A DNA stretch of 64,000 nt from Mobula hypostoma. Its lineage: Eukaryota. The stretch lies in the NCBI RefSeq assembly GCF_963921235.1, contig NC_086097.1, positions 22,508,001 to 22,572,000 on the forward strand, in the 5' to 3' direction. The translations under genes and the position numbers were made by a program. A model generated the notes under the pieces. The model worked only from the letters and a program-made list of their open reading frames with translations. It did no database searches and was not told where the DNA came from. Below are positions 4,763 to 63,900 of this stretch, in pieces (positions within the stretch are counted from its first letter, which is position 1; the number at the start of each line of letters is the position of its first letter).

Positions 4763-6064
4763 TTGCACTTGATATTTAGATGGTTTGGAATGTACTAAGG
4801 TGCTTGTATTGCTAATTGGTAGATTGACCTTGCTTCCTGCAACATATTTGGCCAATTAGAACATATAACATAGAAGAGTTCAGTTCAGTACAGGCCTTTT
4901 GGCCCACAATGTTGTGCTAATTTTTTAACCTACACTTAACTTGCCTTTCTTGATGTGCCCTATTTCATTAGTTCCCAATAGAGAGAACTAATTAATTGTT
5001 AACTTTTTTGCTTTATAGCTAAGAATAAATAACTGGTTTCCCATTATACTAAAGTGTATAGAACATAGAACAGTACAGTGCTGGCCTTTTGCACCCACAA
5101 TGTTCAAGTTTATTGCCATTTAACCATATCCATGAATACTACCAAATGAAACAACGTTCTTCCAGGCCAAGGTGCGTAACACAGTTCACATAACTCACAC
5201 ACAACATATAAATAAATTCACAAATAATAAACAAGAGAAAATCTGCAGATGTTGGAAATCCAAGTAACATTTGTGTGTGTTGCTCGTAAATAATAAGGTG
5301 TATTTACAACACAGGTTTAAAAAGTAAACTGTATATTGTGCCAAACCATTCCCTTCTTCTAGCATAAACCTCCATTTTTTGTCATCCATGTGCTTATCTA
5401 ATTGTCTCTTAAATGTGTCTGTCTTTACCACCACCCACTGTCTGTACAAAGTTAGCTCATTTCATCTGACACTGAATGAGTCAGTTAGCTGTTTATTGTA
5501 TTAATCCATTATCTTTTCTCTATTTCTTCTGGTGCCATCATTATTGCCTTTCCATAACCCTCAACACTCCAAATCATTCTTTTTCAAATACTATTGGAAA
5601 ATTACGCAAACTACATATTTTCTCTGGTTACAGACACCTAGTTTATGCATCTTTGTGCAGATGAACATATATTAGGGAGGTTGGTGGATGGATGGGGGTA
5701 GATTTACCGACTGATGTGGTGCTGCAGGCACCTTCAGTTGGGTGGGAACAAGATAATTCTTCGTGCCATGTCAGTGAGTCTGATGACAGCCACTCTTCCA
5801 GCGTCTCCTTGCCCTCCTATGATGGTTGATTCTGTGATCCTCTCTCTCACTTTTTTTTTGTTCATATTTCTCTTTAAGAAGTTAACAAGTTACAAACTAT
5901 TCTCTTGAATGGAATCCTGTTGTAAGGGGACTTCCCATAATTAATGCATATAACACAGGACATGGGAGGAAGCCAAAACAACAGGCAGGAACCCATGCGG
6001 TCATGGGGAGAATGTACAAGCTCTACTACAGGGACAGAACTTGAGATCCCAATTTCCAACAGTA

Positions 6065-8730
6065 ATGACCATAAGACAAAGGAGCAGAATTGGGCCATTT
6101 AGCCTATCGAGTCAGCTGCACTATTCAATCATGGCTGAACCTTTTTTTCTGCCCTCCTCAGCCCCCTCCCCAGCCTTCTCCCTGTAACCTTTGATGCTGT
6201 TGCCAATCAAGAACCTATCAACAAGCACCTGAAGTTCACCCAAAGACCTGGCTTCCACAGCTGCCTATAGTAATAAATTGTACAAATTCACCATCGTTTG
6301 GCTAAAGCAATTTCTTTGCATCTCTGTTTAAATGGTCCCCCCTCTATCCTGAGGCAGTGCCCTCTTGTCCTAGACTCCCCCACCTTGGGGAACATCCTTT
6401 CCTCATCTACTCTGTCTAGGCCTTTCAACGTCCAAAAGGTTTCAATTAACCTCCTCTCTCTCCCCCCCCCCCCCAACACCCTATCTTTCTAAATTCCAGT
6501 GAATAGCAGCAGCCCAGAGCCATGAAATATTTCTCATCTTTTCATTTCCAGAATCATCCTCATGAACCTCCTCTGAACCCTCTCCAATGCCACCACATCT
6601 CCTCTTAGATGAGGGGCCCAAAATTGTTCACAATACTCAAGATGAGGCCACACCAGTGCTTTATAAAGCCTCAGAATCACATCCTTATTCTTGTGTTCAT
6701 GACCTCTTGAAATGAATGCTAACATTGCATTTGTCTTCCTCACCACTGAATCAACCTGCAAGTTAATCTTTAGGGTGTTCTGCACAAGGGCTCCCAAGTC
6801 CCTTTGTATCTCAAATGTTTGGATTTTCTCCGTTTAGAAAATGGTGTGCACATTTATTTCTTCTACCAAAGTGCATGATCATGCATTTTCCAACATTAGC
6901 TCCCTAATTGCCTCTGGTTCATTATATAACATCCAATCTAGGATAGTTGATCCCATAGTAGTCAATAACAAACTGCTCTAAAAAGCCATCTCAAAGACAT
7001 TCAACTAATTTATTCTCTCGAGATCTATTACCAACCTGATTTTCCCAATCTGCCTGGATGTTAAAATCTCCCATGAGTATCATAAGATTGCCCCTTTGAC
7101 ACGTCTTTTCTGTTCCTCATCACAGCTACTATTTGGAGACCTGTATATAACTGCCATCAGGGTCTTTTTACCTTTGCAGTTTCTTAACTCAACTCACAAG
7201 GTTTCATCATCTTCCAATCCTACGTGATGTCTTTCTAATGATTTGATACCATTCTTTACCCGCAGAGCCACACCAACCACTCTGCCCATCTTTCTATCCC
7301 TCTGATACAATATGTAACCTTGGGCATTCAGCTCCCAACTACAACTATCCTTTAGCCATGATTCAGTGATGGCCACAACATCATACCCGACAGTCTGTAA
7401 AAGTGCAAAAAGATCATCCACCTCAGGGTCCGGCCCGAAACATTGACTGATCGTTTCCACGGATGCTGCCTAACCCGCTGAGTTCCTCCAGCGTGTTGTG
7501 ACTGTTGCCAAGATCATCCACCTTATTTCTTGTACTCCGTGCATTGAGATAGGAGCAGAAGTGGGCCATTCGACCCATTGAGTCTGCTCTGCTGTTCAAT
7601 CATGGGCTGATATTTAAGAATCAGGAGACGGTTCGTGAGATGTAATACTTAGAGTGCTGTATTTTCTACCCTTTCAGATATTGCATCACTAATGCACTGA
7701 TACTCACCCTGCTGGTTGCAATTTTGTCCTATCATCTGCCTGCTCTTCCTGACAGTCTGATTGCAGGCTATCTTGGCTTTTAACCATTTGTCCTAACCAG
7801 AGTCAATCACTCTGGTTCCCACTCCCCGGCAAAATTAGTTTAAATCTTCCCCAACAGCTTTAACTAATCTATCCACGAGAATATTGGTCCTCCTTGGGTT
7901 CAGGTGCAAGCCATCCCTTTTGTACAGGTCATACCTCCCCCAGAAGAGATCCCAATGATCCAAGAACCTGAAGCCCTTCCCCTGCACCAACTTTTCAGCC
8001 ACACATTTATCTGCCTGATCATCCTGTTTCTACCCTCACTGGGGTGTGGCACAGGTAGCAATCCAGAAATTACTATCCTGGAGATCCTGCTTCTCAGCTT
8101 TGTGCCTAACTCTCTCAATTCTCTCTTCAGGACCTTTTCCTTCCTATATCATTGGTACCAATATGTGCCAAGTCGTATGTCTTCTCTCCCTCTCCCCTCC
8201 AAAATGCTGCGGATGCAATCTGAGACATCCCTGACCCTGGCACCTGGGAGGCAACACGCCATCTGGGTTTCTTGTTTACGTCCACAGAATCTCTTGTCTG
8301 TTCCTCTGACTATTAAGTCCCCTGTCACTACCACTCCGCTCTTCTCCCTTTTTCCCTTCTGCACCATGGATCCATGCCAGTAACCTGGTCTCTGTGGCGT
8401 TCCCCTGGGAGATCATCCCCCTCAACAGTATCCAAAACGGTATTATTATTGAGGGGTATGGCTACAGAGGTGCTCTGCTCTAACTGCATATTCACCTTCC
8501 CATTCCTTCTACTGACAGTCTCCCAGCTACTTGCCTCCTGCATCTCATGGGTGACTAATTCCTTGTAACCCTGACCGATTATCCTCTCACTCTCCCATAC
8601 AAGCCGAAGGTCATCCAGCTGCTGCTCCAAAAGAGCTGCACCCAGATGCACTCCACACACAAGTAGTTCTCTGGGAGACTCTGGGTCTTCAGCACCTGGC
8701 AAGAAGAACACATAACAGCCATTTAAACTA
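6065..8730 (-). mobile_element. CR1 LINE with ORF1 esterase (SGNH) remnant, endonuclease remnant, large internal deletion and 3' RT/tail
   Basis: VVVTGDLIVRGTDKRFCG..CCLPGARVRDVS (ORF1); YDVVAITESWL..GVAL (APE); RPHLEYCEQFWAP-type and ESRTRGH motifs. Confidence 0.85.
7424..7509 (+). mobile_element. 86-bp 5'-truncated Penelope-end insertion with 14-bp TSD
   Basis: TSD aagatcatccacct at 7410-7423 and 7510-7523; insert gggtccggcccgaaacattgactg..gatgctgcc..gagttcctccagc. Confidence 0.8.
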
Positions 8731-11712: not shown

Positions 11713-12598
11713 AATTTCTAGTCTGTAAAATCAGGGCTTCATGATTGCTCCAAAATATCTCTTCTGTCTGCCTACCAACTGTACCTTCCTGAGTGCGGTC
11801 TGTGAATTTAGGAATTACACCCTTGTCTAACACACACAAAATGCTGCATAGCAGGTGAAGCCGTGTCTATGGAGGGGAATAGACTGTCAGTTTTGGACTG
11901 AGACCCTTCATCGGAACTGGCAAGGAAGGGGGAAAGAGGCGCGAATAAGAAGGTTGGGGGGGGAGGGGAGAGGAATAAATACAAGCTGGCAGATGATGAG
12001 TGAGGCCAGGTTGAGGGCGAAGATGCTACTAATCCACATCTTGCATTTTTTTGAAAGTGGGAGGCATCTGGAGCACCCAGAGGAAACCCACATGTTCATG
12101 GGGAGAGCGTACAAGCTCCTCACAGAATTGAATCCAAGCAGTGATTGCTGGTGCTCTAGTAACATTATGCTATGCTAACTGCTGTGCTACTGTGCTGCCC
12201 AATGGAGAGCTGATGGCCATAGAATCATAGAGAGCATTCCAACTGACCGCATCACTGTCTGGTATGGTTTGGGGTGGGGGTGGTGCTTGGGTGGGTGCTG
12301 CTATTGCACACGATTGAAATCAGCTGCAGAGAGATGTAAACTTGGACAGATCCATCATGGGCACTATCCTCCATAGTATGCAGCACATCTTCAAGTAGCA
12401 GTGCCTCAAAATGGAGGCATCCATCATGAAGGACCCCCATCACTCAAGTTGTGCCTTGGTCTCATTGCTACCAGCAGGGAGGAGGTGAAGAAACCTGAAG
12501 CCGCACATTTGACGATTTAAGAATGGCTTCTTTCTCTGTCATCCAATATCTGAATGGACATCGAACCCATGAACGCTAGCTCACTACCCTTTTTTAAT

Positions 12599-14460
12599 GC
12601 AACACACAGACATAGTGCTGGAGGAACTCAGCAGGCCAGGCAGCGACTATGGGAAAGAGTACAGTCGATGTTTCGGGCCGACACCCTTCATCAGGACTGG
12701 AGAAAAAATAATGAGTCAGAGTGAGAAGGTGGGGGGAGGGGAGGAAGAAACACAGGGCGATAGGTGAAACCGGGAGGTGGGAGTAAAGAGCTGGGAAGTT
12801 AATTGGTGAAAGAGATTCAGGGCTGGAGAAGGGGGGATCTGATGGGAGAGGCCAGAAGGCCATGGAAGAAAGAAAAGAGGGAGGAGCACCAGAGGGAGGT
12901 GATGCGCAGGCAAGGAGATAAGCTGAGAGAGGGAAATGAAAATGAGGAAGGAGAAGGGGAGGGGCATTACTGGAAGTTCAAGAAGTTGATGTTCGTGCCA
13001 TCAGGTTGCAGGCTACCCAGTTGGCATATAAGGTGTTGTTCCTCCAACTTGAATGTGCCTCATCGCAGAGGTAGAGGAGTCCATGGACTGACATGTCAGA
13101 ATGGGAATTGGAAGTGGAATTAAAATGGGCGGCCACTGGGAGATCCCGCTTTTTCTGACGGATGGAGCACAGGTGCTCGGCAAAGCAACCTCCTAATCTA
13201 CATTAGGTCTCACCGATATACAGGAGACCACACCAGATACAGTAGGTGACACCAAGAGACTCTCAGGTGAAGTGTTGCCTCAGCTGGAAGGACTGTTTGG
13301 GGCCCTGAATGGTAGTGAGGGAGGAAATGTTGAGGCAGCTGTAGCACTTGTTCCGCTTGCAAGGATAAGTGCCAGGAGGGAGATCAGTGGGGAGGGATGA
13401 ATGGACAAGGAGTCACATAGGGAGCATTCCCAGCAGAAAGTTTGGGGGGGGGGCGCAGGAAAGATGTACTTGGTGGTGAGATCCCATTTGAGATGGCAGA
13501 AGTTAGAGAATTATCCGAGTAACTATGCTCTGTCCACTGGGAAAAAGCGGGATATCCCAGTGGCCATCCATTTTAATTCCACTTTCCATTCCTATTCTGA
13601 CATGTCAGTCAATTTGGAGGAGCAACATGTTATATTCTGCCTGGGTAGCCTCCAATAAGATTATGAGGGCGATAGATAGAGCTGATGTGGATAGCCTTTT
13701 TCCATTGAGAGTAGGGGAGATTCAAACAAGAGGACATGAGTTGAGAGTTAAGGGGCAAAAGTTTAGGGGTAACACGAGGGGGAACCTCTTTACTCAGAGT
13801 GGTAGCTGTGTGGAACGACCTTCCATTAGAAGTGGTAGAGGCAGGTTCGATTTTGTTATTTTAAAAATAAATTGGATAGGTATATGGACAGGAAAGGAAT
13901 GGAGGGTTATGGGCTGAGTGCAGGTAGATGGGACTAGGTGAGAGTAAGCATTCGGCACGGACTAGAAGGGCCAAGATGGCCTGTTTCCATGTTGTAATTA
14001 TTATGTTATAATCTGATGGCATGAACATCAATTTCTTGAAGTTATAGTTCTCCCCCCCCCCCACCAAACTCCATCCCTTTTTCCCTCTCTTACCTTATTT
14101 CCTTATCTGTCCATCACCTGTGGATGCTGCTCCCCCTTTTTTCTTCCATGACCTTCTGTCCTCTCCTATCAGATTTCCCCTTCTCCAGCCCTGTATGTCT
14201 TTCACCAATCAACTTCCCAGCTCTTTACTTCACTCCTCCCCCTCCAGTTTCACCCATCATCTGTGTTTCTTCCTCCCCTGCCCCCACCTTCTAACCCTGA
14301 CTCCTCATCTTCTTTTCTCCAGTCCTGCTGAAGGGGCTCAGCCTGAAATGTCAACTGTACTCTTTTTCCACAGATGCTGCCTGGCCTGCTGATTTCCTCC
14401 TGTATTGTGTGTGTGTTTGTGTGTGTCTGTCTCTTGGATTTTGCTCTTGTTTGTGATTGG
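12599..14460. mobile_element. Penelope-like element in inverted (divergent) two-arm configuration, with a CR1 fragment inserted at ~13660-14005
   Basis: Left arm on - (tail, hammerhead, UTR, GIY-YIG YIGET..FAEHL..VAAHFNS..EEQHLI..GSLQPDG); right arm on + (RDIPVAIHFNSTFHSYSDMS..EEQHVIFCLGSLQ, UTR, degenerate hammerhead, tail). TSD-like cctttttaat on both flanks. Confidence 0.8.
12661..12700 (-). ncRNA. Minimal hammerhead ribozyme motif of Penelope pLTR type
   Basis: - strand reads ccagtc CTGATGA a ggg tgtcgg ccc GAAA c ATC gactgt: intact core, stem I cagtc/gactg, stem II ggg/ccc. Confidence 0.65.
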
Positions 14461-15705: not shown

Positions 15706-16050
15706 GACACATGCAAAATGCAGGAGGAATACTGCAGGTCAACCACCGTCTATGGAGGGGAATAGATAGTTGTTTTGGGCTGAGACCCTTCATCAGGACT
15801 GGAAAGGAAGGGGGAAGAAACGATAATAAGAAGGTAGGTGGGGAGAGGAAAGACCAGGTGAGGGGGAAGGTGCATTGGGGAGGTGGGGGGGATGAAGTAG
15901 GAAGCTGGGAGATGATAGGCTGAAGAGGGAGTCTGATAGGAGACGATCGTGGACCAAGGGAGAAAGAGAAGGAGGAGGGGCATCAGAGGGAGGTGAGGAG
16001 ATCAGAAGGATAAGGGGAACTAGAATGAAGATAGTCGGGTGGGAGTAGGA
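15706..16050 (-). mobile_element. Penelope-like 3' end (degenerate hammerhead + UTR)
   Basis: gggctgagacccttcatcaggactgg followed by purine-rich UTR complement. Confidence 0.7.
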
Positions 16051-17744
16051 GAGGGAAAGCTGTGCTTAGTAAGGTCCCATTGTGTTTATAATTTTAGGAT
16101 GAATGCATTATACAGGGCTAATCCTCCAAGCTTCAGTTACAGACCTCAGCGTATTTTCTGATTTAGTAAGTATGTTTATAAAAAAAAAAGTGGAGCAGAA
16201 TTAGTCCAATTGGCCCATCAAGTCATCCCATCGTGGCTGATTTATTATCCCACTCGACCACATTCTCCCCATAACCTTTAACACCCTTACTAATCAAGGA
16301 CCTATCATCCTCTGTTTTTAAATGTACCAAATGACTTGGCCTCCACAGCCACCCTTCGCAATGAATTCCACTGATTAATCCACCCTCTATCTAAAGAAAT
16401 TCCTCCTCTTCTGCTCTGTAGGGACATCCCTGTATTTTGAGGCTAAAACTAAACTACTAGAGGAATGCAGTGAGTCCAACAGCATCTACAGAGGCCGAGG
16501 AGTGGTCAGCATGGTGGGCTTTTGCTCCAGACTTCATTTTCTTGTGTCATAGAATTAATTGCTCAAGAAACTACAGTCCTGAAGAAGGGTCTTAGCCCAA
16601 AATATTAACTGTTTACTTTTTTTCCATAGATGCTGCCTGGCCTGCTGAGTTCCTTCAGCATTCTGTGTTGCAAAATGAGTTTTGGGGAAGGGGAGTGGAG
16701 GTCTACGTTGCTTGTAACAACATTTCCAACATAGAGCTAGTCTGAAGAAGAAACAATATATGTATATTGCTGAAGGTAGTTTTTAAAAAATAAAGTTGGT
16801 AGTGAGGTGGGGCTTGGCATTTTTTGATGCTGGTTTTTATTGAGGGGGACATTTTTACTCATGAAACAATTCTGTTGTACAATCCACAATCCTTTACTCT
16901 GCCCAAGCTCCTTAAACTGTACAGAAATATTCCTCGAGATTGTGTGCACATCACAACAGGTAGATCAAACATTACTCCATAATATCTAACCAACTTAACA
17001 TTCTCTTTGACTGATTGCCTTCCTTGGCTCAACAATTTTTATTGACTCAGCAGCCGAGGAATAATAATGTTGCAGAGTATGTTTGATTATTTTTTCTCTG
17101 AGCTTACAGTTATAATTTGTATTCATATTAATAACCAAATGTTGCTTCATTTATCTCTTTAAGCCCATTAATTGGTACAGCAATAAAGCCCATCTTACAC
17201 ATCCGCCACTCTGTGGAAGACAATATTTCTTAATTTTAAGTTTTCTATGACACCTACTAACTTTATACTCTTCTAATTCCGCCCTCATTGTCAACATTAA
17301 ATCACTTTCTGATGCAGTATGTTGTGTCTTCAAGATAGTTTATCAGATCAACTATTTTGCTCGTCTAGATCCTTAAAATACATTTAGACCATTTCTCTAG
17401 AATTAGGATATTGTTAGCAATCAGACCAATGTGGCTGAAAAGTCTTTAGAGATGAATTTACTGATCTTGATGATATTTGGGAAGTAGGATAGCAGAAAAG
17501 CAGCACTAGTATAGATGAAACAAAATCACACCCAAAAGAAACCTTACATTTCACTGCTCTTAACTCTCTCAAAATTGTGTGCCATGTTGATTAATTCTTG
17601 TTCTGCTTTGTTTTAGGCCTTTGTCTTTAAGTTCAATGTTTGAAATAAATTTATTATCAAAGTGTGTATAAATTTATTTTTGTATATCACCATGTACAAC
17701 CCTGTGATTCATTGTCTTGTGGGCATGATCAATATATCTATAGA

Positions 17745-20436: not shown

Positions 20437-22329
20437 ATCATTAACAGCTATTTTCTTTGTAGATATCCTTAAAATTTTACTCAATTAATTAATAATTAAT
20501 TAGGTTTTTCAGTGCTTGTTACTGTTGCCCTGTTTCTAGGTTCAGTTGACCAAACCAAGAATAAGGGGCTTTGACTTTTAATCCACTCCTTTTCTAAAGT
20601 ACAAATACTTCATTTGACACTGAGTAGAGTGGAAATGCATGACATAATCTTTCATTACACCATTTGGGGACACTAAACTGTGAAGTTCACTGATCATCCA
20701 CTTAATTAGAACTACTGCACCTTACAAAAAATATAAATGCTTAGAAATTTGCCACCAATTAGTAGCATATAAACACATTTATATATCAGATTCCTTCCTT
20801 TCCAGCTTCTTACTTCGTCCTTGTTCCCCCACCCACTCAACTTCACCCTCACCTGGTTTTACCTATCGCCTGGCTGCTTGCTTTCCCTCTCCTCCTCCTC
20901 CTACCTTCTCATTCTCTCTTCTTCCCCCTTCCTCCCAAATCCTGTTGAATAGTCTTGGCCCAAAACTTTGACTGTATTCCTTCCTGTAGATTCTGCCTGA
21001 CCTGCTGAGTTCTTCCAGCATTTTGTGTGTGTTGAACAAGGTGTAATTTCTTAAGACAAAGATCATACCCAGGAGGGTGTAGTTGGTGAGTATACAGAAG
21101 ATATGTTTTGGCCTGACTTGCCAAGTTCCTCTGGCACTTTGTGCATGTGTTCCTCAAGATTTCCAGCATCTTCATTTCAGTCCTTTGATATAAATGGTAT
21201 GAATGTCAGGGACAAAGTACAGTGCTATGAAAATTTGCACTTAGCTCGACTGATCAAGGATCAGTTCAAGCAGTAGAAGTTACAGGATAACACACCTTTC
21301 AGCTCAACAAAGAACAATTGTTCATTCTCTGCACGGGCCTCTTTACAGCCTACCCCACCTGTAAATCCTCCTGTTTTCACACCTTCATCGGTGACCTTGA
21401 ATTTATGCAGCTAACCATTCCACTTTCTAATATACACAGACACAAGTTTTTCCAATCTGATCTGTCTGATTTTAGTTTGAATTGGGTGTCTAAGAATAGA
21501 GTGGCAAAATAGGATTGTTGCCTCACACCTTGAATGACCGAGATTCAGTGCTGACCTCTTGTACTGTATGAGTTTTGCAGTTTCTCTCTGTGAATCTTGA
21601 ACGTTTCCCCGAGTGGTCCATTTTTAGGCCACTTCCCAAACATATACTTTGGTAGGCTGAGTGGGCACAGGATGAAGCGTCTTGGCCAAAATGTAGGCTC
21701 TTTATTCCCTTCCATTAAAAGCTACCTGACCCGCTGAGTTCAAAGGATTTAAAGTACATTTATTATCAAATATGTATGCAGCATACAACCCTGAGGTTCG
21801 TCTTCCACACATACAGCCAGGAAACAAAGAAGAAATGTGGAACCCATTCCAAGAAAAACATCAACTCTTCTCCACGTGCAAAAATAATCAGGCAAATGGC
21901 ATCTTAAAAATTGAGCAAAATCACAGAATGCAAAACACAAAATCAAAAGGCATATTTCAATTTAGCTTGGCGTTCCTTTTCGGCAGGCTTCTTTGATTCA
22001 AAAATCGCCCAAACTAGCAACAAAAAAAAGGAGCGACCGGAAACACTAGAAACGCATCATAAACGCATTTCAGTCCACAATCCACAAACAGCGTTGATTA
22101 AATCTTTCTCCGGCACCATCCTCCGACAGCATCAAGGGGGAGAGAGAGAAATCATTCCTCCAGCACTTTGTGTGTCACTATAAATTGCCCTATTTTGTAG
22201 GTTAGTGTTTAAATTGGGGGCTGTTTATGGGTGTGCAAGAAGAATTAAAAAAGAGGAATTAGCATAAGATAAATTTTAAAGGATGCTTCCTGATGTGCGA
22301 GAACCACTGGATAGAAGCGCCTATTTTCT

Positions 22330-22580: not shown

Positions 22581-23031
22581 TGATTTCAGTTAGTGTTTTC
22601 TACATAGCCACAAATAAATAAATACTTAAAAAAGATTAAATATTGGTAATAAAACACAGAAATACTTGTAAATAAATATAAATATTTAACTAATATAGAA
22701 TATTTAAACACAAACTCTTCTCCATTAACTCCTTTATTAGAATCCCTTTGGAAATCTCACGAGTGAATATCCTAAGCCACGTTTCACCGGGCATGGGATA
22801 GTAGTGACATGACACTCCATAAAGCATCAGCATTCCAGCAAGACTAGGCTCCGTAGGGATTTCTGTGACTCTGACTCGGTTAAACTGTCAATAGCTGAAG
22901 GTTTTAACATTATAAAGCAAATAGTAAATTTCACACAAACAATTTTTATTGTCAGATCTGAGGATTGTGTAACAAAATATACACATTTTTAACATATATT
23001 CACAGTTTGCAGATGGCCTCGTGGAGGAAAT

Positions 23032-23240
23032 GGTGGAGGAATGCAGCAGGTCGGGCAGCATCCAGGGAAAGGAATACACAGTTGACCTTTTGGACTGAGA
23101 CCCTTCACCTGAACACGTGCTGAAGGGCCTCTCCCTAAACGTAGACTGTTTATGTTTTCCCGTGGCTGCTGTCTGACCTGCTGAGTTCCTCCATGTGTGC
23201 TACTCTGGGTTTCCAGCATCTGCAGAATTTCTTGTGTTGA
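23032..23240. mobile_element. Older degenerate fold-back Penelope-end mini-element
   Basis: Left arm cagcaggtcgggcagcatcc..gagacccttca; right arm tgaagggcc..gctgtctgacctgctgagttcctcca plus ttccagcatctgcaga tail; same layout as 48252-48512. Confidence 0.65.
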
Positions 23241-32494: not shown

Positions 32495-35400
32495 GTAGTA
32501 GCTCCTGTCGTTGGGTGACAGGGGGTGGTGCGGGGAAGCAAAGGTGAGCAGACAGGTAGTGCAGAGCATCCCTGTAGCCATTCTTCTGAATAATAACTTT
32601 ACTGTCCTGGATACTTTTGGCGGGGACGACCGACTAGGTGTGAGGCATGGTGGCAGGGCCTCTGGCACTGAGTCTGACCATGTGGTGCAGAAGGGTGGGA
32701 CGGAGAAGGGGAGAGCTGTCGTCATTGGAGACTCTATAGTCAGGGGAGCAGATTTTGTGGACGTGAGAAGGACACCCGCATGGTTTGTTGCCTCCCGGGT
32801 GCCAGGGTCCGGGATGTCTCTGACCGGGTGCACGACATCCTGGTACAAGAGAGAAAGCAACCAGAAGTCGTGATGCATGTTGGTACCAACGACATAGGCA
32901 GGAAGAGGGATGAGGTCCTGAAGTGTGAGTTTCGGGAACTAGGTAGAAGGCTGAAGAACAGGACCTCAAGGGTGGTGTTCTTAGGATTGCTTCCAGTGCT
33001 ACGTGACAGTGATGGTAAGAATTGGAGGAGATGGCAGTTGAATGCATGGCTGAAGAGTTTGTGCAGGGAGCAGGGTTTTAGATTTTTGGATGATTGGGAT
33101 CTCTTCTGGGTAAGGTGGGACCTGTACAGATTGGATGGGTTGCACATAAACTCGAGGGGGAGCAATATCCTTGCAGGTAGGTTTGCTAGCATGGTTTGGG
33201 AGGGTTTAAACTAATTTGCAAGGGGGATGGGACCCGGAGCAATAAAGCAGTGAAAGAAGTGCATGGAGTAAAGCCAGATCTAACATATAGAGAGGCTTTG
33301 AGGAAAGAGAAACAGAATAAAGGGTGTAAAGGTAGTAAGGTAGAAGGGCTAAAGTGTGTGTTCTTCAATGCAAGAACCATCAGGAACAAAGGTGATGAAC
33401 TGAGAGCTTGGATACATACATGGAATTATGATGTAGTGGCCATTACAGAGACTTGGCTGGCACCAGGGCAGGAATGGATTCTCAATATTCCTGGATTTCA
33501 GTGTTTTAAAAGGGATAAAGAGGGGGGAGAAAGGGGAGGAGGGGTGGCATTACTGGTAAGGAATACTATTACAGTGCATCTACAGAAAGGGTTGGTAATG
33601 TAGCAGGATCCTCTTTTGAGTCAGTATGGGTGGAAGTCAGGAACAGGAAGGGAGAAGTTACTCTATTGGGAGTATTCTATAGGCCCCCTGGTAGCAGCAG
33701 AGATACCGAGGAGCAGATTGGGAGGCAGATTTTGGAAAGGTGCAAAAATAACAGGATTGTTATCATGGGTGACTTTAACTTCCCTAATATTGGTTGATAC
33801 CTGATTAGTTCCAAGAGTTTAGATGGGGCAGAGTTTGTTAAGTGTGTCCAGGATGGATTCCTGTCACAGTATGTTGACAGGCTGGCTAGGGGGAATGCCA
33901 TACTTGATCTAGTATTAGGTAACGAACCAGGCCAGGTCACTGAACTCTCAGTGGGTGAGCATCTAGAGAACAGTGACCACCACTCCCTGGCCTTTAGCAT
34001 TATCATGGGAAAGGATAGAATCAGAGAGGACAGGAAAATTTTTAATTGGGGAAGGGCAAATTATGAGGCTATAAGGCTAGAACTTGCGGGTGTGAATTTG
34101 GATGATGTTTTTGCAGGGAAATGTACTATGGAGATGTGGTCAATGTTTAAGGATCTCTTGCAGGATGTTAGGGATAAATTTGTCCTGGTGAGGAAGATAA
34201 GGAATGGTAGGGTGAAGGAACCATGGGTTACAAGTGAGGTGGAAAATCTAGTTAGGTGGAAGAAGGCAGCATACATGAGGTTTAGGAAGCAAGGATCAGA
34301 TGGGTCTATTGAGGAATATATGGTAGCAAGAAAGGAGCTTAAGAAAGGGCTGAGGAGAGCAAGAAGGGGGCATGAGAAGGCCTTGGCAAGTAGCAATAAG
34401 GAAAACCCCAAGGCATTCTTCAATTATGTGAAGAAAAAAAGGATGATAGGAGTGAATGTAGGACCGATTAGAGATAAAGGTGGGAAGATGTGCCTGGAGG
34501 TGGTGGAAGTGAGCAAGGTCCTCAATGAATACTTTTCTTCGGTACTCACCAATTAGAAGGAACTTGATGACATGAGGACAATATGAGTGAGGTTGATGTT
34601 CTGGAGCATGTTGATATTAAGGGAGAGGAGGTGTTGGAGTTGTTAAAACACATTAGAACAGATAACTCCCAGGGGCCTGACGGAATATTCCCCAGGCTGC
34701 TCCATGAGGCGAGGGAAGAGATTGCTAAGCCTCTGGCTAGGAACTTTGTCCTTGTTGTCCATGGGGATGGTACTGGAGGATTGGAGGGAGGCAAATGTTG
34801 TCCCCTTGTTCAAAAAAAGTAGTTGGGATAGTCTGGGTAATTATAGACCAGTGAGCCTTACGTCTGTGGTGGCAAAGCTGTTGGAAAAGTTTCTTAGAGA
34901 TAGGATCTCTGGGCATTTAGAGAATCATGGTCTGATCAGGGACAGTCAGCATGGCTTTGTGAAGGGCAGATCGTGTCTAACAAGCCTGATAGTGTTCTTT
35001 AAGGAGGTGACCAGGCATATAGATGAGGGTAGTGTAGTGGATGTGATCTACATGGATTTTAGTAAGGCATTTGACAATGTTCCACATGGTAGGCTTCTTC
35101 AGAAAGTTAGAAGGCATGGGATCCAGGGAACTTTGGCCAGGTGGATTCAGAATTGCTGTGCCTGCAGAAGGCAGAGGGTCATGGTGGAGGGAATACATTC
35201 GGATTGGAGGGTTGTGACTAGTGGGGTCCCACAAGAATCAGTTCTGGGACATCTACTTTTCGTGATTTTTATTAACGACCTGGGCGTGGGGGTAGAAGGC
35301 TGGGTTGGCAAGTTTGCAGATGATACAAAGGTTGGTGATGTTGTAGATAGTGTAGAGGATTGTTGAAGATTGCAGAGGGACATTGATAGGATGCAGAAGT

Positions 35401-36203
35401 GGGCTAAGAAGTGGCAGATGGAGTTCAACCCGGGGAAGTGTGAGGTGGTACACTTTGGAAGGCCAAACTCCAAGGCAGAGTACAAAGTAAATGGCAGGAT
35501 ACTTGGTAGTGTAGAGGAGCAGAGGGATCTGGGGGTACATGTCCACAGATCCCTGAAAGTTGTCTCACAGGTAGATAGGGTAGTTAAGAAAGCTTATGGG
35601 GTATTACGTTTCATAAGTCGAGGGATAGAGTTTAACAGTCATGATGTAATGATGCAGCTCTATAAAACTCTGGTTAGGCCACACTTGGTGTACTGTGTCC
35701 AGTCCTGGTCGCCTCATTATAGGAAGAATGTGGAAGCATTGGAAAGGGTACAGAGGAGATTTACCAGAATGCTGCCTGGTTTAGAGAGTATGCATTATGA
35801 TCAGAGATTAAGAGAGCTAGGGCTTTACTCTTTGGAGAGAAGGAGGATGAGAGGAGACATGATAGAGGTATACAAGATATTAAGAGGAATAGATCGAGTG
35901 GATAGCCAGCGCCTTTTCCCCAGGGCACCACTGCTGAATACAAGAGGACATGGCTTTAAGGTAAGGGGTGAGTAGTTCACGGGGGATATTAGAGGAAGGT
36001 TTTTTACTCAGAGAGTGGTTGGTGCGTGGAATGCACTGCCTGAGTCAGTGGTGGAGGCAGTTACACTAGTGAAATTTAAGAGACTACTAGACAGGTATAT
36101 GGAGGAATTTAAGGTGGGGGGTTATATGGGAGGCAGGGTTTAAGGGTCGGCACAACATTGTGGGCCGAAGAGCCTGTACTGTGCTGTACTATTCTATGGT
36201 CTA
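32495..36203 (+). mobile_element. Near-full-length CR1 LINE: ORF1 esterase (~32510-33214) and ORF2 APE+RT (~33196-36110), disabled by stops and frameshifts
   Basis: VVIGDSIVRG, HVGTNDIG, DGLH (SGNH); FNARTIRNK, YDVVAITETWL, SDH (APE); NYRPVSLTS, QHGF, YMDFSKAFD, SGVPQESVLG, KFADDTK (RT); tail gtgctgtactattctatggtcta. Confidence 0.95.
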
Positions 36204-47520: not shown

Positions 47521-47544
47521 GAATTCTCAGCTTTGATTGCCACA

Positions 47545-47975
47545 TAAAACATAGAACTGTATAGCACAGGAACAGGCACTTCGGCCCATAATGTTGTGCC
47601 GAACCAGTTAATCAAAGACCCCAAAAGCTAATCCCTCCTACCTACATGATGTCCATATCCCTTCATCTTCCTCATAGTCATGTGCCTATGTAAATGTCTC
47701 TTAAAAGCCTCTAATGTATTTGCCTCTACCACCATGCCAGGCTGCGTCAATCCAGGTATCCATCACTCCCTGAGTAAAAAGAGTGTGATCCCCTCATATC
47801 CCCTTTGAGCACACTCCCTCTCAGTTTCAATGCATGCCCTCTGGTATTAAACATTTCTGCACTGGAAAGATATTCCCTGTCTACTCCATCCATGCCTCAT
47901 AATCTTGTAAACCTCTACCAGATCTCCTCCAGCTTCCTTAGCTCCAAAGAAAACAATCCTCATTTGTCCAGCCCC
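47545..47975 (-). mobile_element. CR1 3' tail fragment
   Basis: aacatagaactgtatagcacaggaacaggcacttcggcccataatg.. tail complement. Confidence 0.7.
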
Positions 47976-48310
47976 ATGTGCCCATGGATACATGTATCGA
48001 TGGAGCATTCCCTTTCATTGATTTTTGCTTATTTAGATCTGCAACTCCTAATTTTGTCTTTTTATTACGTTTCCTTGCATTAACTCCACCTTTTGAGTTG
48101 ATTGTAGTGTTGTTGGTCTCTTGGCCTCTTTTCCCCTACTTTCAACTTTAGCTGTTTGTTTTTTTGTTCAATTTATGTTCTCGTTTTTCTCTCCTCCCCA
48201 CCCCTGTATAGAACATAGAACAGTACAGCACAGGAACAAGTCCTTTGTCCTGCAACACACACAAAATGCTGGTGAACGCAGCAGGCCAGACAGCATCCAT
48301 AGGAAGAAGC

Positions 48311-48350
48311 ACAGTCGACGTTTCGGGCCGAGATCCTTCATCAGGACTAA
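48311..48350 (-). ncRNA. Minimal hammerhead ribozyme motif (left arm)
   Basis: - strand tagtc CTGATGA aggatctcggccc GAAA c GTC gactg. Confidence 0.65.
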
Positions 48351-48375
48351 TTGAAAGAAGAGATCTCTTCTTCCG

Positions 48376-48416
48376 GTTAGACCTGATGAAGGGTCTCGGC
48401 CCGAAACGTCGACTAT
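48376..48416 (+). ncRNA. Minimal hammerhead ribozyme motif (right arm)
   Basis: tagac CTGATGA agggtctcggccc GAAA c GTC gacta; one stem-I mismatch. Confidence 0.65.
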
Positions 48417-48869
48417 GCTTCTTCCTATGGATGCTGTCTGGCCTGCTGCGTTCCACCAGCGTTTTGTGTGGGTTGCTTGAATTTCCAGCATCTGCAGATT
48501 TCCTCGTATTTGAAGTCCTTTGTTCTACAATGTCTGTCTCGACCATTTTCCCCACCTAAACTAATCCCATTTGTCTGCACATGTTAATCTCTGTCTGTTC
48601 CCTGGCTGTGTGTGTGCTTGTCTGTGTGCCTCTTAAACATGGCTGTCATTTTTGCCTCTGCCTCTTTCCCTGGCATTGCGTTCCAAACCCTTATCGTTCT
48701 CTTTGTAATCAAAAACTCCTTTGAACGCTCCTCTTCTTACCTTAAAACCATGCCCTCTGGTATTTGACATTGCCACGCTGGCAAACAGATTATGACCATC
48801 CACCCCACCCCTGCCTCTTTATATTTTAAGGCACACCTATCAGGACACCACTCAGCCTCTGGTGCTCCC

Positions 48870-49125
48870 GCTAAAATGTTAGTGCTTAGTGTAATGCCAT
48901 TACAGAGCCAGCAACCCCTGTTCAATTCTGCTGCTGTTGTGTGTAAGGTGTTTCCACATTCTCCCCATGACCGCAAGCGTTTCTTCTGGATGTTCCAGAT
49001 TCCTCCCCCATTCCAAAGATGCACAGGTTTGTGGGTTAATTGGTCACATGGGTGAAATTGGCTGATGCAGGCTCGTTCAGCCAGAAGGCCCTGTTACCCT
49101 GCTGCATCACAAATAAAAAAAATAA
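48870..49125 (+). mobile_element. V-SINE-like element
   Basis: gttcaattc head; ttcctccccattccaaagatg..ggttaattggtcacatggg core; A-rich tail. Confidence 0.65.
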
Positions 49126-55265: not shown

Positions 55266-55636
55266 TAGCCTTTGAATGGCCAACTTGCCCCCCCCCACCA
55301 CCACTTCTCTTGGCCCAGTTCCTGACCTCGCCCCCTCCAGCTTCCTGATCGCATTGAATCATATTCAAGAGATTGCAGATTTGGTCCACTGCCACTCGGT
55401 GATGGTAAGGAAACAATGTTAATTAGGCACCTAGTAGATCAGTAATTTTAGCAGGAGCTCTATTCTTATTCTTCTGGGGTACTGCATCTATGTCCCGAGG
55501 ATCCTTCCATTGAATATTAGGATATTTGCCTCTGTGAGACCAAGAATTTTGCTTGCTTTACCAATCTGATGGACTTAACCATCTTCAGATTCGAATAGAC
55601 GAAGCTGAAGGCTTTCCTGTTATTGCAGCCATTTCA

Positions 55637-55776
55637 AGTCACGATGAAGGGTCTCGGTCTAAACGTCAGCTCTTCATTTCTTTCCATCGATGCTGCCTGA
55701 GCTGCTGAGCTCCTCCAGTGTTTTGAGTGTGTAACTCTGGATTTCCAGCATCTGCAGAATCTCTAGTGGTTATGGT
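55637..55776 (+). mobile_element. 140-bp Penelope-end insertion with 14-bp TSD
   Basis: TSD ttgcagccatttca at 55623-55636 and 55777-55790; insert starts at a degenerate hammerhead (agtcacgatgaagggtctcggtctaaacgtc). Confidence 0.8.
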
Positions 55777-57604: not shown

Positions 57605-59107
57605 CAGAGCGTATAAAAAGCATTCCCACCTCCTCTCTTGGAAGTTTTCATGTTTTATTGTTTTACAATGTTGAATCACGGTGAATTTAATTTGGCTTTT
57701 CTGACACTGATCAACAGAAAAAAGACTGTTTCATGTCAAAGTGAAAAGAAATCTCTACAAAGTGATCTAAATTAATTACAAATATAAAACACGAAATAAT
57801 GGATTGTATAAGTATTCACCCCCTTTTAATATGACACACCAAATCATCACTGGTGCAGCTAATTGGTTTTAGAAGTCACATAGTTAGTTAAATGGAGATC
57901 ACCTGTGTGCAGCCAAGGTGTTTCAAATGATTGTAGTAAAAATACACCTGTATTTGGAAGGTCCAACTGCTGGTGAGTCAGTACCTTGGCAGGAACTACA
58001 CCATGAAGACAAAAGAACAATCCAAGTAATTCTGTGAAAAGGTTAATAAAGAGCACAAGTCAGGGGATGGCTACAAGAACACTTCCAAATCACTTAGAGT
58101 ACAGTTAAGTTAGTTATCGAGAAATGGAAAGAATATGGCACAGCTGTAAATCTGCTGAGGGCAGGCCGTCCTCAAAAACTGAGTGACCATGCAAGAAGGG
58201 AACTAGTGAGAGAGGCCACCAAGAGACCTATGACAACTCTGGAGGAGTTACAAGCTTCAGTGGCTGAGATGGGAGAGACTGTGCATACAAAAACAGTTGC
58301 CTGGGTATTTCACCATTTGCAGCTTTATGCGAGAGTGGCAAAGAGAAAACCACATGAAATCTTGGCATGTGTAAGACTCGGAAGTCAGCTACACATCATT
58401 AAAAACACACCAACCCTACCGTGAAGCATGGTGGTGGCTGCATCATGCTCTGGGGATGCTTCACTGCAGTAGGTCTTGGAAGTCTTGCGAATGTAGAGGG
58501 TAAAATGAATGCAACAAATACAGGAAAATCCTGGAGGAAAACCTGATGCAGTCTGCAAGAGAACTGTGACTTGAGAGAAGATTTGTTTGCCAGCCAGACA
58601 ATGACCTCAAGCATAAAGCCAAAGCTACAGGCAAATGGCTTAAAAACAACAAAGTTAATGTCTTGGAGTGGCCAAGTCTGAGTCCAGACCTCAATTCAAT
58701 TGAGAATTTGTAGCTGGACTTGAAAAGGGCTGTTCATTCACGATCCCCATGCAATCTGACAGAGCTTGAGCAGTTTTGTAAAGAAGAATGGGGGAAAAAC
58801 TATAGTGTCCAGATGTACAAAGCTGATAGAGGCCTATCCACACATCAACAAGGCTGTAATTACTGCTAAAGGTGCATCCACTAAATACTGACTTGAAGGT
58901 GGTGATGACTTATGCAATCAATTATTTTGTGTGTTATATTTGTAATTAATTTAGATGACTTTGTAGAGATCTGTTTTCATTTTGACACTTTTTTTTTGTT
59001 GATTGGTGTCCAAAAAAAAAACAAATTAAATCTACTGTGATTCAATGTTGTAAAGCAATAAAACATGTAAACTCCTGGGGATGTGTGAATACTTTTTATA
59101 GGCACTG
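57605..59107 (+). mobile_element. Second decayed Tc1 copy of the same family (transposase ~58003-58891)
   Basis: Ends cagagcgtataaaaagcattc and gaatactttttataggcactg|[38 protein letters not shown]. Confidence 0.9.
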
Positions 59108-62929: not shown

Positions 62930-63900
62930 TATCAGGTCAGCGGTAGGTGATAAGAGTGGGCTCCCTTTATCTTCACCCCTCTGACTTTCAATACAGGAGC
63001 CCCTCAGGGGTATGTACTAAGTCCCCACCTTTACTCGTATACCCATGACTGTGTCACCACCCACAGCTCTAGTCTGCTAATTACATTTGTCGATAACACT
63101 ACATTGATTGGCCTTATCTCAAAAAATAACGAGGTGGCCTACAGGGAAGAAGTCATGTCTCTGACACAGTGGTGTCAAGAAAACAACCTCTCCCACAATG
63201 TCACAAAAACAAAGGAGCTGGTTGTGGATTACAGGAGGAATGGAGATGGGTTAACCCCTATTGACATCAATGGATCTGGGGTTGAGAGGATAAACAGCTT
63301 TAAGTTCCTCGGCATCCACATCACTGAGGACCTCACGTGGTCTGTACACACCAGCTGTGTGTAAAAAGACACAACAGCGCCTCTTTCACCTCAGGCGGTT
63401 GAGGAAGTTTGGTATGGGCCCCAGGGGAACAATTGAGAGCCTCCTGACTGGCTGCATCACTGTCTGGTATGGGAACTGTACCTCCCTTAATCGCAGGACT
63501 CTGCAGAGAGTGATGCAGACAGCCCAGTGCATCTGTAGTTGTGAACTTCCCATGATTCAGTACATTTACCAAGACAGGTGTGTAAAAAGGGCCCAAAGGA
63601 TCATTGGGGACCCAAGTCACCCCAACCACAATCGATTCCAGCTGCTACCATCCGGGAAATGGTACTGCAGCATAAAAGCCAGGACCAACAGGCTCCAAGA
63701 CAGCTTCTTCCACCAGGCCATCAGACTGATTAACTCACGCTGATTTGAGTGTATTTTATGTTACATTGACTGTTCTATTTATTATAAATTATTATAAATT
63801 ACTATGATTACACACTGCACATCTAGACAGAGACATAACGTAAAGATTTTTACTCATGTATGTGAAGGATGTAAGAAATCAAGTCAATTCAATTGAATTC
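62930..63900 (+). mobile_element. Rex1/Babar-type LINE 3' part
   Basis: TGAPQGYVLSP, FVDNTTLIGLI, FKFLGIHI, QQRLFHLRRLRKFGM, SFFHQAIRLINS; (aattc)n tail; same family as 3091-4270. Confidence 0.88.

Follow-up and report, generated by a model that had tools for sequence, protein, structure and literature searches.

Minimal hammerhead ribozymes (min-HHRs) are found in the repeats of metazoan Penelope-like elements (PLEs), where dual motifs on opposite strands, 100–700 bp apart, are also reported (Cervera and de la Pena, 2014; PMC4209133). They are characterized by an unpaired base between positions 9 and 10.1, a G10.1-C11.1 pair, a palindromic 15.2–16.2 segment, a short helix I, and the absence of helix III (PMC4209133). 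Self-cleavage of the PLE min-HHRs in the literature is weak and takes place in dimers or with the assistance of proteins (PMC4209133; PMC11167929), and these ribozymes are thought to act through a dimer of two sense cores (PMC4209133; available part of PMC6765202). Regarding integration, the available part of PMC8557442 describes an inverted, 5′-truncated copy adjoining the PLE insert and a tail of 30–40 bp at one end only. Furthermore, for a lizard PLE studied in vitro, cleavage and extension of both DNA strands by the enzyme were demonstrated, as were two neighboring internal start sites of reverse transcription, the spacing of which corresponds to the tail (Frangieh et al., 2024; PMC11167929). 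The present report is focused on a palindromic insert of ~260 bp in Mobula hypostoma, located within a 64,000-nucleotide stretch of contig NC_086097.1 (RefSeq assembly GCF_963921235.1, positions 22,508,001–22,572,000, forward strand). This stretch is referred to as the window, and all coordinates are counted from its first base. The insert is very probably a single, dead, and heavily 5′-truncated insertion of an abundant PLE inside an older repeat, in which the last ~113–149 bases of the element are present twice, head to head. Fold-backs of this kind are independent by-products of PLE integration and not a new kind of mobile element; the structural class is already known and agrees with the way in which PLE insertions have been described (Craig et al.).

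Structure of the Insert and Its Target Site

The insert consists of two arms, each with a candidate hammerhead core, between two copies of a target-site duplication (TSD). The features are as follows, with the evidence in brackets.

48205–48255, no strand: left part of an older interspersed repeat resembling a short interspersed element (SINE), the target of the insertion (copies in the window and at L033, L034, and L042; very high depth from 48206 in four contig runs)
48238–48255, no strand: left copy of the TSD, 18 nt, or 14 nt if the last four bases are given to the arm (direct repeat, 16/18)
48256–48363, minus strand: left arm, inverted 5′-truncated PLE 3′ end, family positions 1 to ~109–113, without the tail (91–94% identity to natural copies)
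48317–48344, minus strand: candidate minimal hammerhead core with all core bases, stem I of 5 pairs, stem II weakened by G>A (descriptor scan; 33 other arms and 29 other copies; pairs by eye)
48364–48476, plus strand: right arm, direct 5′-truncated PLE 3′ end, family positions 1–113 (repeat and family comparison)
48383–48410, plus strand: candidate minimal hammerhead core, cleavage predicted after 48410; T>A at 48381 gives an A-A mismatch in stem I (descriptor scan; family copies; feature list of PMC4209133)
48477–48512, plus strand: 36-bp tail, right arm only (one-tailed-arm pattern in 17/17 places; tail described in the available part of PMC8557442 and in PMC11167929)
48513–48530, no strand: right copy of the TSD (direct repeat; single in intact copies of the host repeat)
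48531–48600, no strand: continuation of the interrupted host repeat (comparison with other copies)

A repeat search delimited a palindrome of ~225 bp in total (48252–48476), which lacks a spacer and is centered on AGA/TCT at 48363/48364, as the first-pass annotation of this DNA had reported. The inner arms (48274–48363 and 48364–48453) are 90 nt in length, 93% complementary, and separated by 0 nt, and the outer stretches (48252–48274 and 48454–48476) extend the pairing by 23 nt at 91% complementarity, offset by a one-base indel. The remaining 36 bp at the right of the insert (48477–48512) lack a counterpart on the left. Of the two arms, one extends to the tail-bearing terminus of the element, and the other stops ~36 nt short of it, at the tail-less terminus. 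Both arms are enclosed by a direct repeat of 18 nt, AAGTCCTTTGTCCTGCAA (48238–48255) and AAGTCCTTTGTTCTACAA (48513–48530), which is identical at 16 of the 18 positions; the duplication of 14 bp with one mismatch given in the first-pass annotation is the same repeat without its last four bases, which could just as well be counted with the left arm. The duplicated segment is present once in uninterrupted copies of the host repeat (L042, L033, and window 47536–47660), indicating that the direct repeat is a true TSD made at insertion. Furthermore, because one TSD encloses both arms, the insert represents one insertion event.

The interrupted SINE-like repeat starts with TAGAACATAGAACAGTACAGCACAGGAAC and is abundant and older than the insert; a second copy lies 700 bp upstream (47536–47660), and further copies are found in the window at 5055, 30071, 36179, and 49940. 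Within the tail, a perfect 10-nt palindrome, ATCTGCAGAT (48490–48499), is kept in nearly all printed copies of the family and forms a small stem-loop in the predicted RNA fold of the insert. This palindrome may belong to the recognition or start-site structure of the PLE enzyme.

Palindromes are among the known errors of long-read libraries, and no contig spans the center of the insert with zero differences. These two points speak for an assembly artifact, in which a chimeric fold-back read made the palindrome from a single arm. However, a fold-back read would give identical arms, whereas the two arms differ at ~7% of positions; the TSD comes from a host repeat whose other copies hold the segment once; the tail is present on one side only; and 16 further places have this architecture, each bounded by a TSD of its own. 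In addition, 48483–48852, i.e., from the tail into the right flank, is reproduced with zero differences in a contig of run X1, although X1 may be the assembly's own sample. An artifact is scarcely credible in view of these observations.

The Penelope-Like Family and Its Hammerhead Motif

The sequence of the arms is abundant in the same 3.48-Gb genome. Compared with the 149-nt right arm, 40 other scored places, drawn from 2298 first-look candidates, are 91–95% identical. At 26 of the 29 other printed loci, the sequence continues upstream into common family sequence, the exceptions (L006, L008, and L015) stopping within 18 nt. The upstream extent in 30 loci ranges from 19 to at least 1500 bases, and coverage declines steadily away from the 3′ end, as in 5′-truncated retroelements. 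Allowing ≤3 mismatches, a 25-nt pattern across family position 0, which is the window's center, has 56,014 matches in the genome, and a 25-nt pattern inside the arm has 93,368; reversed-pattern controls returned 0–3 matches. Since only ~11% of the arms in a sample of 100, described below, end nearby, the gap between the two counts must mostly reflect subfamily divergence upstream of helix I.

The identity of the family was obtained from the coding region of longer copies. The open reading frame (ORF) of one such copy (P0001, 426 aa, L034), which is contiguous with the arm, is 42% identical (E = 4e-95) to residues 392–800 of P0003, and the alignment covers the GIY-YIG stretch of the latter (708–751). 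In P0003 (806 aa), an RVT_1 domain of 29.4 bits, just under the cut-off of 29.6, is followed by a GIY-YIG domain of 25.0 bits (cut-off 22.6), and 60 homologs have precomputed PF00078 and/or PF01541 domains. P0001 itself had no Pfam match, being too decayed to score. RVT_1 followed by GIY-YIG is the architecture that defines endonuclease-bearing PLEs, and the arms, as judged from these comparisons, are the 3′ end of such a family. In the two copies with the longest 5′ regions examined (L055 and L056), the 5′ boundary is the same, ~2.5 kb before the 3′ end, and arm sequence is absent beyond it; L010 is a nested, partly tandem arrangement.

Older relatives are also present in the window. Eight old PLE 3′-end fragments, 70–82% identical to the arm, lie at 1103–1220, 7400–7512, 12590–12715, 14305–14420, 15710–15816, 16559–16672, 20925–21040, and 55625–55745. 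Their similarity starts at the helix I/CTGATGA box and mostly stops at the tail-less terminus; these limits indicate that the module from the hammerhead to the start site (family positions ~16–113) is the part common to the diverged PLE subfamilies found here. Furthermore, runs X1, X3, X9, and X10, which consist of contigs of uncertain kind from four differently coded organisms, have the PLE arm at very high summed depth over 47900–48900, and unique flanks are present at ~93–97% identity in two of the four organisms, suggesting that the PLE family is common to related species. The flank contigs of X9 and X10 stop at 48232 and start at 48525, and they bridge neither an empty site nor the insert.

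The hammerhead is located in the 3′ untranslated region of the PLE, ~100–130 nt from the 3′ end of the element. A descriptor scan of both strands of the window returned exactly two matches, one per arm (48383–48410 on the plus strand and 48344–48317 on the minus strand), so that the hammerhead core on each strand described in the first-pass annotation holds as a sequence motif. Both cores read CTGATGA-A-(stem II)-GAAA-CG-TC and then GACT, and GACU can pair with the bases just before CUGAUGA. Briefly, the layout comprises an extra unpaired A after CUGAUGA, a 4-bp helix II (GGGU/GCCC) closed by the loop CUCG, and the palindromic ACGU. All of the conserved core is present, namely, C3 U4 G5 A6 N7 G8 A9, G12 A13 A14, A15.1-U16.1, and H17 at the cleavage site. 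On this reading, the cores match the description of PLE min-HHRs (PMC4209133). Among the family copies, the core commonly varies only at N7 (T or C), which is its single unconstrained position. Compared with the majority of family copies, the T>A change in the right arm places an A-A mismatch in helix I, and the G>A change in the left arm breaks one pair of helix II (pairs by eye). The stems are nearly invariant across the subfamilies and in 10 older relatives in the window; the variation that occurs is decay, with neither covariation nor contradiction.

Within the hairpin, the predicted cores are probably passengers with no role. Each transcript would contain one sense core paired to its own antisense copy, and hence neither the monomer fold nor a dimer of sense cores would be possible within it. 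A ribozyme on each strand would thus be a geometric consequence of inverting the 3′ end, without functional consequence.

Just upstream of the motif, family positions −40 to +13 (window 48364–48376 and the upstream part, e.g., in L011) contain a long pyrimidine tract, CTTAC, and TTTCAG before helix I, which together resemble a 3′ splice site. In Penelope of Drosophila virilis, an intron ends at helix I (PMC4209133). No spliced PLE copy was seen among the loci examined; a gap of 368 bp in L010 was considered as a splice and rejected, since the gap is a nested short insertion.

Fold-Backs Elsewhere in the Genome and the Origin of the Insert

Inverted partners are frequent in the family. At 12 of the 30 loci, the copy abuts a head-to-head inverted partner; counted from the window's center, the inner ends range between ~−1008 and +84, and most pairs are asymmetric. 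A query spanning the center retrieved 17 distinct places including the window, the centers of which lie within ~10 nt of that of the window. In all 17, exactly one arm reaches family positions 144–149, and the other stops at 77–131 (109–116 in 12 of them). TSDs of 11–18 bp with ≤2 mismatches, all different in sequence, were found at 16 of the 17 places, and the script found only 6 bp at L052. The centers vary from place to place, with no filler, with CC, TAA, CA, or AG, or with 6–10 extra family bases on one side. The 17 places span several subfamilies, and both arms of each place carry the same subfamily or private variants. Identity is 92.5% between the arms of a pair and 89.3% for 272 cross-place pairs, the own partner being ranked first at 7 of the 17 places. 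Of the 23 recurrent differences between left and right arms, CpG sites account for 14; several are seen in either direction, and no single difference is found at more than 4 of the 17 places. Because copying as a unit would give inherited asymmetries and not co-varying arms, these data fit separate events, each with one source RNA.

The second sample was ordered by coordinate and taken irrespective of the center, and comprises the first 100 exact in-arm matches listed on contig C1. An exact match through the center at the right offset was present in 57 arms, and the other 43 were examined with 70 upstream bases, their ends being judged by eye. Of these, 32 continue into the family, five end against unrelated DNA at ~−20 to +1, and six, at five places, abut an inverted family piece, with the two inner ends at ~(−20, −10), (−32, −32), (−29, +45), (−43, +126, tail only), and (−6, +28). 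The window's center was found in none of these five fold-backs, and all five centers and arm lengths differ. At L083 (G000:C1:30015990-30016084), the inverted piece comprises ~24 bases of tail only and is joined directly to a direct copy that starts ~43 bases upstream of the window's center, making L083 an extreme asymmetric variant. A junction hot spot at the center, in the form of a transcript 5′ end or an intron branch point, was considered, since helix I is directly preceded by a pyrimidine tract and CAG; the idea was dropped because the inner ends of the 100-arm sample (~−43, −32, −32, −29, −20, −19, −18, −11, ~−12, −6, and 0) show no peak. The window itself contains an older PLE fold-back (23020–23238), the arms of which are ~75% complementary, with a center near 23113 at the start of the hammerhead box and the tail on the right arm only. 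It belongs to a diverged subfamily, and its center differs from that of the palindrome at 48363/48364.

These comparisons bear directly on the first alternative of the first-pass annotation, a protein-free, Penelope-mobilized family of ambisense ribozyme hairpins, which was to fall if center and arm length differed in every genomic copy; both do differ from place to place. As a non-autonomous element transcribed and retrotransposed as a unit by PLE enzymes, such a hairpin would account for at least 17 distinct places of near-identical architecture with centers within ~10 nt and for the AGATC-type center common to seven places in the genome, and non-autonomous PLE derivatives are known in other taxa (available parts of PMC8557442 and of bioRxiv 10.64898/2026.07.22.740005). 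However, the 17 places have similar centers because they were retrieved by a query spanning the center, whereas the centers differ in all five fold-backs of the coordinate-ordered sample. Even among the 17, the fillers vary, and the arms of each place carry the same variants of one of several subfamilies, which descent as a copied unit cannot produce. Furthermore, there is no inherited asymmetry between the arms, as the recurrent differences are mostly CpG decay in either direction, and long asymmetric versions grade continuously into the short ones. A hairpin element of this kind is therefore very unlikely. A miniature inverted-repeat transposable element with long terminal inverted repeats would explain a near-perfect inverted repeat inside a direct duplication, but a transposase makes TSDs of fixed length, whereas those found here measure 11–18 bp and vary by place; moreover, the ends are asymmetric, with the 36-bp tail on one side, and the arms correspond to the 3′ terminus of a retroelement that has a reverse transcriptase (RT)/GIY-YIG ORF and a 5′-truncation profile. 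This explanation can practically be set aside.

The second alternative of the first-pass annotation, the minimal product of Penelope fold-back integration, is upheld: the arms are the 3′ end of a PLE, and an adjoining inverted, 5′-truncated copy with a tail at one end is what the available part of PMC8557442 describes. A mechanism can be proposed for integration by-products of this type. The PLE enzyme would introduce staggered nicks on the two DNA strands, 14–18 bp apart, and each 3′-OH would prime on the element RNA, one at the outer and one at the inner of two adjacent internal start sites, as described for the lizard PLE. Both cDNAs would end at the same base after ~110–150 nt, through repeated use of one truncated RNA or a reversal of the enzyme on the first cDNA. 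A junction without a spacer would then result as one cDNA is extended on the other. These steps are reconstructed, and the end product is what the insert shows.

Several points weigh against this account. The precedent for two-strand priming is one lizard PLE in vitro, and the present family is a canonical RT plus GIY-YIG PLE, which does not imply the same clade. Two independent priming events, one per strand, do not in themselves account for the common stopping base of the two arms, nor for the presence of the tail on exactly one arm in 17 of 17 places. Because two arms share twice the query words, fold-backs are probably overrepresented among the 30 loci. A strict 26-nt palindromic center is found at 19 places (≤3 mismatches), and the AGATC-type center at seven, including the window; by a rough estimate, these seven exceed the expectation for independent ends. 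Among the few long copies, including L055 and L056, there is no full-length copy with a flanking pseudo-long terminal repeat. Finally, the Rfam hammerhead models, which the first-pass annotation had proposed to run with Infernal, had no match at E ≤ 10 in 47800–48900 or in the single arm 48366–48430, and Rfam models at gathering score had none anywhere in the 64-kb window. The miss is expected because helix III is lacking, but it still counts as a negative, and a dedicated descriptor was likewise used in PMC4209133 for this reason.

The AGATC-type centers, the (−32, −32) pair, and the fold-back at 23020–23238 suggest that a minority of fold-backs is made symmetrically. It is conceivable, though improbable, that the tight spacer-less fold-backs, with exactly one tail each, are a distinct turn-around product, in which the RT or a second protomer on the same RNA would retrace the first cDNA as far as the tail-less start site. 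Perhaps thousands of hairpins of ~110 bp per genome, many of them in transcribed introns, might then also give double-stranded RNA (dsRNA) for small-RNA silencing of the PLE family; if this were true, turn-around fold-backs would be a self-generated source of dsRNA feeding the silencing of PLEs.

The RNA of 48252–48512 is predicted to fold into one hairpin of −205.9 kcal/mol, compared with −76.2 ± 5.5 for 200 shuffled sequences (z = −23.6), none of which equaled it. The dsRNA stem of ~110 bp proposed in the first-pass annotation is thereby supported as a predicted fold, and its proposed transcription within a neurexin intron lies outside what folding addresses. With regard to the claimed neurexin context, a Pfam search of the 60 longest of 301 stop-to-stop frames of ≥62 aa found only transposon domains (RVT_1, Exo_endo_phos, GDSL-lipase-like, Tc3-type helix-turn-helix, and ALKBH8_N), a search that short exons would escape. 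The very stable predicted fold, together with several Rfam microRNA-precursor models that score the hairpin with E down to 2e-11, could indicate a co-opted by-product, i.e., a hairpin transcribed in a host gene as a source of dsRNA, small RNA, or a microRNA-like precursor. However, the matches (MIR6136, mir-5429, and others) are all below gathering (best 64.1 versus 99 bits), are equal on both strands, and reflect any long hairpin. In addition, the ~7% divergence between the arms has no compensatory pattern, as expected for neutral decay. Co-option is considered very unlikely, and the insert most likely has no present role.

The surroundings contain further transposon remnants. Frames of a retrotransposon of the long interspersed element type, with a GDSL-lipase/OSK-like domain, Exo_endo_phos, and RVT_1, are found at 32678–35972 on the plus strand; an RVT_1 fragment is located at 62954–63361, and fragments of a Tc3-type transposase helix-turn-helix at 2290–2658 and 58098–58421.

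As a single locus, the insert matters little; it is a decayed transposon fragment, for which the proper annotation is PLE-derived sequence rather than novel element, ribozyme gene, or microRNA. The mini fold-backs as a group hold both ends and the junction of one PLE integration within 260 bp, and a genome-wide catalog of their centers, fillers, tails, and TSDs could constrain the mechanism by which inverted PLE copies arise. They also call for caution in screening, as PLE fold-backs mimic microRNA precursors in covariance-model searches and can break short-read assemblies.

Comparison with Known Systems

In LINE-1 twin priming, both nicked strands prime, which results in an inverted 5′ segment inside one TSD. 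The insert is similar in that two-strand priming, an inverted segment, and one TSD are involved. By contrast, the segment inverted in LINE-1 twin priming comes from further 5′ in the RNA, and no sequence is duplicated, whereas both arms here are the same sequence. No paper on PLE fold-backs in cartilaginous fishes was found, which is not evidence that none exists.

Non-LTR retrozymes of animals also carry hammerheads and are related to PLEs (available part of bioRxiv 10.64898/2026.07.22.740005). Their motifs are in direct or tandem repeat and the elements propagate as circular RNA, whereas the cores here are inverted, with one sense core per transcript and no excisable unit. A retrozyme was rejected, as the two cores lie on opposite strands 38 bp apart.

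At the level of sequence, at which this comparison and the following one are made, the motif resembles the PLE min-HHRs (PMC4209133) in being type I, with the CUGANGA plus GAAA core, the G10.1-C11.1 pair and the unpaired base before it, a helix I of 4–5 bp, and ACGU without a real helix III. Helix II has 4 bp with a 4-nt loop here and 7–8 bp in the schistosome families described, and the two cores are only 38 bp apart, compared with 100–700 bp for the published dual motifs (PMC4209133). Poseidon of Anolis carolinensis (PAc) likewise has a hammerhead ~65–100 nt upstream of two alternative 3′ termini that bound a tail (PMC11167929), and its cleavage and extension of both strands would give inverted copies. 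PAc belongs to another host and another PLE family, and its ORF starts inside the hammerhead, whereas most copies here have CTGACGA and no ATG.

The closest counterparts are the complex inverted insertions of canonical and Naiad/Chlamys PLEs, as described in the available part of PMC8557442. The fold-back in the window corresponds to them in its head-to-head orientation, 5′ truncation, one-sided tail (36 bp here), TSD around the unit, and hammerhead in the repeated part. It differs in that both arms are cut to ~110–150 bp at the same base and nothing else is left of the element, both ORF and spacer being absent. The fold-back in the window is the short, symmetric extreme of the known range of inverted PLE insertions.

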